Below are positions 30,501-33,500 of a stretch of DNA of 64,000 nt, in pieces (position 1 is the first letter of the stretch; every line of letters begins with the position of its first letter). This DNA is from Escherichia coli (lineage in GTDB: Bacteria > Pseudomonadota > Gammaproteobacteria > Enterobacterales > Enterobacteriaceae), in the NCBI RefSeq assembly GCF_003334405.1, contig NZ_QOWM01000001.1. One strand, written 5' to 3'. Made by a program: the position numbers.

Positions 30501-33500
30501 AGGCTATTGGACAGATCGGATACTTTTACAGAACCGAATTTACTGAGTCGTTTCAATATTTCATGATGGCGTTCAAATTTCATGCTTCACCTCACTTCAG
30601 TTACGTTAATATCTATCGATGTATATTGATGTGATAATCACCATAAAGTGGCGGGGAAAAGCAAAAAAAAGCAAAAATAGCCTGAGAAAAGGTAAGCGTT
30701 AATGGAGAATCATATTGATGCTTATTTATTGGTGAGAACTACGTTCCATGGCAGGAGTTCATCAATACGGTTGGAAGGTTATTCCGGCAGTACGCTCAGG
30801 ATATGGCGCAGATACGCTTCCGGATCAATGTCGTTCAGAAGGCAAGTGCCGATAAGCCCATACAACAGTGCACTGCGCTCGCCGCCGAAGAACATAAAGT
30901 TTTTATTTCCGAGACAGATGGCACAAAGGGCTTTTTCCGCGGCATTATGTCTGCCTCCGCCTGACCGTCAACACTGTAATAACAGAGTGCGCCCCACTGA
31001 TTCAGTACACAGCTGAACCATTCTCCCAGTCTGGATTTTTGGATAGCGTGGCATTTTTCTCCACCATGCATGCAGTGAGTCCAGTAACAGTTTGCTCTTC
31101 TTCTGCCTGACCACAAGATGTGCTGGACTGGTAAACGATGGGGATACCTGCTTACGCGAGAGCAATAAGTGGCTGGCCACAATTCTCGGTACAAAACTCT
31201 GCTGAATAGCAGCGATTTTCCCAGCGTGGTGCGTCGTTTGCATTTTACTGGTTCTAAGTTAACAATTATCTGTTCACTAATGACTACTCTAAAAACTTGT
31301 ATCAGGACTATCACTTATTTAAGTGATATTGGTTGTCTGGAGATTCAGGGGGCCAGTCTATAAACTTTTTACAAAAGGATGAATGCAGAAGGTTACTCTA
31401 ATGGCCAGAGTGATGACAATGATGGTCAGACGTTGACCTGCAGAAACTGCATTTTAATTGGTCTATAAAGTCTGCAAGAGGAATCAGGGTCAGATCAGTG
31501 AGTCTTATCGCGGCCCGAAGCTATGACTGAAAGAAGGCTGGATACAGAATTGCAACAATTTGGCAATGTCAGAACACAGAAGCTTTGCAAGCAGGTGAAA
31601 GGTTATGTCTAGCAAAAGGAGTATATCAGAATACATCTACTGATGTACAAAACACAACAATAGCTTCATGATATATAAATACGTGATGACGAGTGGTACT
31701 CCGCATGGTTATTTAACTTCTCAGCACCACTAATGATCCTGAGCAACTTCGTATTTGGGCCATTGCCATGGAGTAGAAAGCTGTGTCTGAGAATGCAGAA
31801 TTTGAGAAAAGAATTCGCTTTCTTGGAGAGCTTCTGAAAATGGCACGCTAACAACGTTTTGTTAAAAAATGTGAATCACTTGCCGGGGCTGCATTTTCTA
31901 TTCGAGGAGAATGTTGACGTAGATATTACAGAAATCTCAGCGCATCAGGATAAACTGCTACCTTAGGTCAACCACCAAAAGAAAATACAATACGTCCAGT
32001 TTGTATGCCTTTAATAACACATCTTCTAAATGTTGAAGAATTATCCCGCCTGCTGAAGAACGTTGCTCTGAGTGTGATAAACCTTTTTATTCTTGATGAT
32101 GTCAGCGAGAAGATGGAATATATCCCCGACTGGGTCGTGGTTACCCGGTTAAACATCTGGTGGCGCTAATAAATCTGGCAAGTCACATTCTGTTGAATGC
32201 TGTGACAGTGCCTTACCGAGAGAGCGAAATTGTGGTGTTCTAGTGCATAGTCGCCACCATTCCGGATAATTCTATTGCGTTGTTTTACAAGTTCTTTTAC
32301 AGCGCAGATCTGTCGCTGACGTTGAATCAATAGCCTGGATTTCAGAACACAATGCCCGTTTGCTGGTTGGTCCGGCAGTAGCATTAATTCATTATCTGAA
32401 TGAAATGTGTCAATCCACAGAAACCGCTGTCAATGACGCATTTTGTCGGACGTTAACACGAGAAAGTCTGGCTATTCCGTAATGCCATCTTATTTCGTAA
32501 TGGATTGAGAATGCTGGATTTTTAATTATATTACGCGCAGTATTAATCGCGTAAATGTTTTGCGGTCAGCAACGGTGGGGGATCCATTGTTCTGTTCAAT
32601 GAATACCATCATACATTTGAATCAGGAGTCGGTATGATGATTTTGGTGACGGGGGGCGCACGGAGCGGGAAGAGTCGCCACGCAGAGGCGCTTATTGGGG
32701 ACTCTTCACAGGTTCTGTATATCGCTACCTCGCAAATCCTTGATGATGAGATGGCTGCACGGATAGAACATCATCGGCAAGGCCGCCCGGAGCACTGGCG
32801 CACAGTGGAGCGCTGGCAACATCTTGATGAATTAATTCATGCAGACATTAACCCGAATGAGGTTGTGTTGCTGGAATGCGTTACCACAATGGTGACTAAT
32901 CTGTTGTTTGATTATGGCGGCGATAAAGACCCTGATGAATGGGATTATCAGGCGATGGAACAGGCGATTAATGCTGAGATTCAGTCGTTGATTGCTGCCT
33001 GCCAACGTTGCCCCGCAAAGGTTGTATTAGTGACTAACGAAGTGGGAATGGGGATTGTGCCGGAGAGTCGTCTGGCACGACATTTTCGTGATATTGCCGG
33101 GCGGGTAAATCAGCAGTTGGCCGCTGCGGCAAATGAAGTATGGCTGGTGGTTTCTGGTATTGGAGTAAAAATCAAATGAGTAAATTATTTTGGGCGATGC
33201 TCTCATTTATTACGCGTCTGCCTGTACCGCGTCGCTGGTCCCAGGGACTGGATTTCGAGCATTATTCTCGCGGTATTATTACTTTTCCTTTGATTGGATT
33301 ATTGCTTGGCGCGATTAGCGGGCTGGTCTTCATGGTGCTGCAGGCATGGTGTGGCGCACCACTGGCGGCACTGTTTAGCGTGCTTGTGCTGGTGCTGATG
33401 ACCGGGGGATTCCATCTGGACGGCCTCGCTGATACCTGTGATGGCGTATTTTCTGCACGTAGCCGCGATCGCATGTTGGAAATCATGCGTGATAGCCGTT

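Follow-up and report, generated by a model that had tools for sequence, protein, structure and literature searches.

What once stood directly upstream of cobU in Escherichia coli, where 1.3 kb of DNA without a long open reading frame (ORF) separates this cobalamin gene from an IS66 transposase pseudogene? We examined this tract within a 64-kb window of contig NZ_QOWM01000001.1 (assembly GCF_003334405.1). All positions are those of the whole window, in which the tract occupies 31301–32633 (1333 bases). We conclude with high confidence that the tract is a layered scar of deletions and insertions, without coding function and built of insertion sequence (IS) pieces followed by remnants of cbi genes. 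The initial annotation had suspected the remnant of one or more former genes, possibly residue of lost cobalamin-operon genes. The first part of that proposal was correct, with at least six different elements recognizable between the IS66 pseudogene and cobU. The second applied to no more than the final ∼300 bp, roughly a quarter of the whole; the other ∼1040 bp (31301–32337) is IS debris.

The pseudogene on the left (30779–31117, minus strand) is present as first described, and on the right the tract runs up to cobU (32634–33179, plus strand).

ORF content

No ORF over ∼70 codons had been seen at first inspection, and this was confirmed: the longest start-to-stop ORF in the tract has 72 aa (32166–32384, minus strand), followed by ORFs of 62, 62 and 54 aa. 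The longest stop-free run in any frame was 87 codons, against 89 ± 20 for shuffles of the same bases (n = 500); by ORF length the tract looks like random noncoding DNA. Stops in the six frames totaled 142, compared with 162 ± 9 in the shuffles and 99 in an equal length of cobU–cobS. The deficit relative to the shuffles is a faint residue of coding bias. Since the ORF content resembles that of noncoding DNA, support for an origin from decayed genes has to come from homology, and it does. The short protein-like runs broken by stops that were noted in several frames are real, and several frames gave matches, to IS66 TnpC, to IS4 transposases and to the C-terminal third of an Escherichia CbiG-like ORF. 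The outcome that the initial annotation had named as a refutation, an absence of hits in every frame, thus did not occur.

Remnants of four insertion sequences

Comparison with known ISs, which the initial annotation had advised, yielded four clear identifications: IS2-like, ISEc11-like, IS66 and IS4. The left edge of the tract is formed by the left end of an IS2-like (IS3-family) element in minus-strand orientation (31145–31360, of which only 31301–31360 falls within the tract), comprising the terminal inverted repeat, the leader and a decayed 5′ part of orfA. Its terminus, TAGACTGGCC in the minus-strand reading, ends at 31360 and is the only intact IS terminus in the tract; the piece is truncated on its inner side, and nothing else of the element remains. 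IS2 copies match it at ∼83% identity, from their end into the first ∼84 nt of the transposase coding sequence, which is on the opposite strand. For the outermost 55 nt (31306–31360), phage records contain IS2 ends of 94–100% identity, and one such record carries the annotation 'insertion sequence:IS2', and 31145–31347 is 88.7% identical to a second relic in K-12. An IS2-type terminal inverted repeat followed by the start of orfA is what identifies IS2 within the IS3 family, and both are found here. A 159-aa ORF at 30835–31314 (minus strand) is a chimeric read-through from the decayed IS2-like orfA start into the C-terminal IS66 TnpC fragment, and is not a gene.

The next piece (31361–31589, plus strand) is the orphan noncoding region of an ISEc11-like element of the IS1111/IS110 family, the region that in such elements codes for a seekRNA or bridge RNA, and it is without a transposase. 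Its relatives in blastn searches were ∼230-bp segments of 73–75% identity (E 1e-25 to 2e-32), found on the chromosome of E. coli ZYB39 and on >200 plasmids, mostly of Shigella and E. coli. In three independent contexts (loci L090, L091 and L092) the related segment follows an IS110-family transposase gene of like orientation, starting 22–30 nt past its stop codon; two of these three transposases score 329–332 bits on NF033542 (cut-off 140). The three intact copies share common sequence on the left from ...GAATGAGATGAACGCATCCCC and on the right up to ...GGGGATGCGTTCATACAG, after which they diverge; they are ∼1443 bp long with a 14-bp subterminal inverted repeat, ATGAACGCATCCCC. The window retains element positions ∼1194–1424. 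The right copy of ATGAACGCATCCCC is absent from the relic, the homology stopping 3 nt before it, and no part of the window showed a remnant of an IS110-family transposase by tblastn.

In elements of the IS1111 type, the stretch that follows tnp codes for a seekRNA that guides the transposase, and in ISEc11, an E. coli IS1111 member of 1433 bp, the noncoding region is at 1170–1374 (PMC11187229). A long noncoding region after tnp and subterminal repeats are hallmarks of the IS1111 group, and we assign the element to it; the relic has homology to the first of these features and lacks both an adjacent DEDD transposase gene and the subterminal repeats. Among ISEc11 and its relatives (Siddiquee et al. 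2024, PMC11187229), it shares the post-tnp region and a covarying helix with the intact ∼1443-bp copies, and differs from these in being ∼74% identical and in having neither transposase nor right inverted repeat. The helix emerged from an alignment of the intact copies (L090 3499–3742, L091 2999–3238, L092 2999–3242), in which columns 76–83 pair with 132–139. These 8 bp show double compensatory changes (CCTG...CAGG versus TCAC...GTGA) around a highly variable segment, as would be expected for a seekRNA stem enclosing programmable loops. The relic keeps the CCTG...CAGG version.

We also considered 31363–31589 as a decayed IS66 tnpB, on the strength of motifs matched by eye. This was ruled out: a TnpB profile built from 84 homologues had no match in 31101–31800, and IS66 homology at the DNA level ends at 31590.

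From that point to 32141 (plus strand) the tract is an IS66-family relic consisting of the last ∼80 nt of tnpB, a spacer and tnpC codons 1–150. It aligns by blastn to an intact IS66-family element on plasmid pESBL3171-IncF at 71.5% identity over 571 columns (E 2e-78), and the alignment is collinear from the tnpB end through the spacer to the tnpC start. The close succession of tnpB and tnpC, with N-terminal TnpC homology, marks it as IS66. TnpC residues 1–151 matched the relic by tblastn at E 6e-24, and plasmid matches to the relic by tblastn were at 43% identity (E 1e-13 to 5e-15). Translation of tnpC would have begun at 31705; a TAA is found as early as codon 4. A codon-by-codon comparison with intact TnpC (31705–32141) gave 89 of 150 identical residues (59% aa identity after frameshift correction), with four in-frame stops and at least four frameshifting indels, at codons 62, 93, 113 and 128–130. 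The relic is far from a complete element. An intact IS66 element such as that of pESBL3171-IncF (tnpA-tnpB-tnpC) measures ∼2.5 kb, whereas homology here stops at 31590 and at tnpC codon ∼150, leaving ∼550 bp without tnpA, the tnpB body, the catalytic DDE domain of TnpC or the terminal inverted repeats.

A promoter-like pair, TGTACA-17-CATGAT, occurs at 31646–31674 (plus strand), a short distance before the defunct tnpC start codon. Genomic SELEX (systematic evolution of ligands by exponential enrichment) lists these hexamers as a constitutive promoter of the K-12 pseudogene yoeG. The site may be the old tnpC promoter, perhaps still able to bind RNA polymerase.

The IS66 relic is cut by an internal piece of an IS4-family transposase gene (32142–32330, plus strand), ∼63 codons with one stop, both of whose ends are deletion junctions. 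The Prokaryotic Genome Annotation Pipeline (PGAP) calls it a pseudogene, 'IS4 family transposase; internal stop; missing N- and C-terminus'. It matched positions 132–197 of the 332 in NCBIfam profile NF033592 (E 6.7e-4, 18.9 bits), a score far under the 115-bit whole-protein cut-off, as expected of a 63-codon piece. It was the only match of NCBIfam to the six stop-masked frames of the tract. In tblastn searches, genes annotated as IS4-family transposases on E. coli plasmids matched it at 70–72% aa identity (E 2e-21). Profile and annotated genes thus agree on IS4, as a fragment only.

Remnants of a CbiG-like ORF and of cbiP

The last ∼300 bp of the tract probably derives from the cobalamin operon. 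From 32338 on, the window is 93% identical in nucleotide sequence to the pdu+ E. coli O121 strain RM8352, which has an intact 145-aa ORF at this place. The window retains, at 32338–32482 (plus strand), the last 47 codons and the stop of this Escherichia ORF of 144/145 aa, with a 9-nt deletion; we refer to this piece as cbiG′. PGAP calls it a pseudogene, 'cobalamin biosynthesis protein, missing N-terminus'. The intact 145-aa ORF matches positions 1–125 of 351 in NF004463, cobalt-precorrin-5A hydrolase (E 1.6e-19, 70 bits, cut-off 546), and so resembles the N-terminus of CbiG. The 53-residue piece of the window gave no CbiG profile match by itself; it is assigned to CbiG because of its 93% nucleotide identity to the intact ORF. 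Searches with the 145-aa ORF found no match in Pfam even at E ≤ 10, which we count as uninformative, and nothing among Protein Data Bank sequences.

Homologues of 144–145 aa are confined to Escherichia (E. coli, E. albertii, E. marmotae and E. whittamii, with E. albertii and E. marmotae as named by the source records). Intact copies lie between a cobalamin riboswitch and cobU in O121 RM8352 (L003 5735–6172), in the divergent E. coli strain E69 and in E. whittamii (L008 3443–3877 and L010 3432–3866). Pairwise ratios of nonsynonymous to synonymous substitution (dN/dS) were 0.45–0.64 for the CbiG-like ORF and 0.09–0.16 for cobU, indicating relaxed constraint on the ORF, perhaps short of full neutrality.

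One candidate for the fragment that PGAP labels 'cobalamin biosynthesis protein' was the C-terminus of CbiP. This was rejected: NCBIfam makes the parent ORF CbiG-like, and the cbiP remnant lies further downstream. Local alignment saw no cbiP similarity in 32339–32482, which fits a cbiG origin.

That downstream remnant, cbiP′ (32483–32633, plus strand), is no open frame and corresponds to what decay has left of the ∼50 terminal codons of cbiP. Where loci of Citrobacter, Klebsiella and Salmonella were examined, cbiP extends as far as the cobU start codon. In Escherichia, the 150 bp before cobU form a collinear DNA alignment with the cbiP 3′ end of these three genera, up to the cobU ATG; examples are YAQY*S against YAQYKS, and ATACCATCAT...GGAG...ATG, which is common to the genera. 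Against C. amalonaticus the similarity reached E 1e-4 by blastn and z = 6.8 by local alignment (none of 300 shuffles reached the score), and against a second Citrobacter species z = 3.8. CbiP residues ∼465–489 of Citrobacter and Klebsiella matched the piece weakly by tblastn at 44–48% identity over 25 aa (E 0.02–0.06). The piece is thus identified as cbiP both by sequence homology and by its place directly upstream of cobU.

The cbi-cob operon of Citrobacter, Klebsiella and Salmonella has its counterpart at the same position, with residual cbiP′ similarity and, for the intact Escherichia ORF, the CbiG profile match. Unlike those operons, the E. coli window is without cbiA–F, the rest of cbiG, cbiH–O and 90% of cbiP.

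The cbiP′ piece now carries the promoter and leader of cobUST. A promoter scan found the sigma-70 promoter TTGAGA-16-TATATT at 32505–32532 (plus strand, 10 of 12 consensus positions), and the ribosome-binding site AGGAG for cobU is at 32623–32627 (plus strand). The same hexamers are the constitutive RpoD promoter of cobUST in a K-12 genomic SELEX study (PMC3946193). The −35 hexamer is conserved within Escherichia and not in Citrobacter. Only the last ∼130 bp of the tract, with this promoter, a ∼95-nt leader and the ribosome-binding site, would be in use; we infer this for the present strain from activity measured by others in K-12. A modest reading is that Escherichia made its cobUST promoter from the dead 3′ end of cbiP.

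A matching scar at tmaR and the proposed course of events

In pdu+ O121 RM8352 the gene order is tmaR, pduV to pduA (minus strand), pduF, pocR, a cobalamin riboswitch, the 145-aa 'hypothetical protein' (cbiG′), cbiP′ and cobU. The riboswitch lies upstream of cbiG′, in the part deleted from the window, and the cobalamin riboswitch family RF00174 had no match at E ≤ 1 in 30000–34000. The deletion has a partner scar on its other side: a 60-aa C-terminal stub of PduV adjoins tmaR (yeeX) at 15565–15747 (minus strand; PGAP annotation of an identical genome), where O121 has full pduV. Between this stub and the cbiG′/cbiP′ scar (32338–32633) lie ∼16.6 kb of a CP4-44-like island (yeeW, cbtA/cbeA, yeeT, yeeS and others), further cargo, IS pseudogenes and the IS part of the tract. 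Island and IS debris take up precisely the space that in pdu+ strains belongs to pduV...pduA-pduF-pocR-riboswitch-cbiG′(5′). In strain 38 a PduV stub is joined straight to the cobU leader, at the equivalent of window position 32446; a further alternative left junction is at 32365.

Every internal junction of the tract is a truncation except the IS2-like terminus, and from this we infer successive IS insertions with adjacent deletions, followed by neutral decay. The ancestral Escherichia would have had a pdu-pocR-cbi-cobUST block between tmaR (yeeX) and ldtA. Within Escherichia the cbi genes would then have shrunk until only the B12 riboswitch, 145 codons from the 5′ end of cbiG and ∼50 from the 3′ end of cbiP were left, the state still seen in pdu+ E. 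coli. A CP4-44-like integrative island and several ISs would have entered the present lineage, and IS-associated deletions would have removed everything from inside pduV to inside cbiG′. What is left beside cobU, each piece cut by the next, is the IS2-like left end, the ISEc11-like region, IS66 tnpB′-tnpC′, the IS4 transposase piece, cbiG′ and cbiP′. These pieces would have drifted neutrally, gaining stops and frameshifts.

Spread among genomes and comparison with K-12

Many E. coli chromosomes, NZ_CP062895.1 among them, have the tract at 100% identity. Of 5426 complete E. coli genomes, 2829 contain 80% or more of it and 5404 its cobU-proximal 493 bp. The ISEc11-like relic occurs at ≥99% identity in 3558 records. 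PGAP annotates three pieces of the tract (a 54-aa hypothetical protein, in some genomes only, the IS4 fragment and the 'cobalamin biosynthesis protein' fragment), leaving ∼800 bp unlabelled. Literature searches for a prior description of the scar turned up nothing specific.

Some public records with tract sequence are odd (MG065683.1, NZ_CP079635.1 and NZ_CP141089.1). A 2.5-kb record named 'Campylobacter phage B14' has 284 bp that are 100% identical to window 31960–32243, and 'plasmid' records of 1.0 Mb (Klebsiella pneumoniae) and 4.9 Mb (E. coli) contain the tract. These are likely cases of contamination or mislabelled replicons.

In K-12, yoeG and yoeH lie between insH-6 (IS5) and insD-3 (IS2), next to cobU (PMC3946193). 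This K-12 pseudogene block is 99.8% identical to window 31359–32243. It differs on the right in that an IS5 has inserted into the IS4 piece at CTAG, 32240–32243, and on the left in having yoeA fragments and an IS2 insertion; in the window, the IS2-like end directly abuts the noncoding region. We take yoeA to be fragments of a TonB-dependent receptor gene. In K-12 strain HMS174 (L005 4817–4978) an IS110-family transposase gene survives as its 54 final codons (48% identity, E 3e-8), and the noncoding region of the element comes next. This remnant lies between the yoeA 5′ fragment and the yoeH/yoeG block, where PGAP annotates nothing.

Alternative explanations

An origin from a prophage is suggested by the K-12 annotation, which puts the homologous DNA in the 'CP4-44 cryptic prophage', and by the position of the tract at the cobU-side edge of the CP4-44-like island. 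We consider it unlikely. A six-frame search against PHROGs found no phage family, only a single 19-residue match of unknown function (E 0.0014). A comparison with phage databases, also advised at the outset, matched only the IS2 end, apart from the 284-bp piece in the unannotated 'Campylobacter phage' record, in which E. coli contamination is likely. The IS fragments may have arrived as cargo of the island, which would be compatible with a layered scar.

The island cargo at 24511–30583, next to the tract, includes further pseudogenes (of an ISL3 transposase, with a frameshift and an internal stop, of a DMT transporter, likewise interrupted by a stop, and a fragment of a gamma-glutamyltransferase gene) beside intact genes for a phosphotriesterase-related protein, a glutamine amidotransferase and a PfkB-kinase. 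Window 1–11000, upstream of dacD, holds a prophage remnant of P22-like appearance, with an integrase, a LexA-family repressor, Arc, an antirepressor, a phage head-binding-domain (tailspike-like) protein and a Panacea-domain protein.

Part of the tract could instead be functional, either as an ISEc11-like, seekRNA-like transcript or as a small protein encoded by the 54-aa ORF at 32005–32169 (plus strand; WP_001128468.1). The relic does keep one version of the helix that shows compensatory changes among intact copies, and in K-12 the homologous block has RpoD-bound, promoter-like sites that genomic SELEX assigns to the pseudogenes yoeG and yoeH. Against this, the relic has neither transposase nor right subterminal inverted repeat, its single-sequence fold is no more stable than those of shuffles (z = +1.0), and Rfam had no family at E ≤ 1 in 30000–34000. 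As to the ORF, PGAP annotates it in NZ_CP062895.1 and not in NZ_AP023230.2, on identical DNA. It is a frame-shifted TnpC piece, a chance open frame within the tnpC relic, of which just the last ∼20 codons are in the old TnpC frame (...DDVSEKMEYIPDWVVVTR, TnpC residues ∼131–150). A current function is on this evidence very unlikely, and nothing suggests coding or RNA function in 31301–32482. A narrower version, to which we give very little credence, is that the orphan region, fixed in most E. coli chromosomes, is still transcribed to a seekRNA-like RNA that loads onto an ISEc11-type transposase supplied in trans and biases the insertion sites of such elements; if true, the transposase could come from Shigella and E. 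coli plasmids with intact copies.

That the whole 1.3 kb is leftover cbi genes has almost no chance of being right, even though its last ∼300 bp appears to derive from cbiG and cbiP and cbiP has the syntenic position in Citrobacter, Klebsiella and Salmonella, because 31301–32337 matches IS2, the IS1111/IS110 noncoding region, IS66 tnpB-tnpC and an IS4 transposase, Salmonella cbi proteins gave nothing significant against the tract, CbiM, CbiQ, CbiO and CbiP from six enterobacterial loci scored at chance level against 31101–32640 (E > 0.01, cbiP′ aside at 0.02–0.06), and no NCBIfam cbi family appeared in six frames at E ≤ 1.

Several points weigh against the layered scar, or against parts of it. 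The homology that identifies cbiP′ spans a short stretch, and it is marginal for Klebsiella (z 2.8) and missing for Salmonella (z 0.1); the cbiG′/cbiP′ junction is placed only to within 32408–32490. The IS pieces are assigned to families, not to named IS species. The label 'ISEc11-like' comes from architecture and from the distribution on Shigella and E. coli plasmids, ISEc11 being compared by description. A Pfam search of stop-masked three-frame concatenations of both strands found no match even at E ≤ 10, which we treated as uninformative. Finally, neutral vertical descent would account for how little the tract differs among strains, and constraint would be possible too.

Significance for the cobalamin region of E. 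coli

The tract is real but ordinary, widely shared and partly annotated already. Its origin as a scar explains the ∼800 bp that automated annotation leaves unlabelled. For those who catalogue IS110/IS1111 guide RNAs, the orphan seekRNA region, which is unannotated, is a minor curiosity. For E. coli itself, the cobUST promoter sits in former cbiP coding DNA, and the tract is a clear, datable example of the dismantling of pdu-cbi, with scars that match at both edges.

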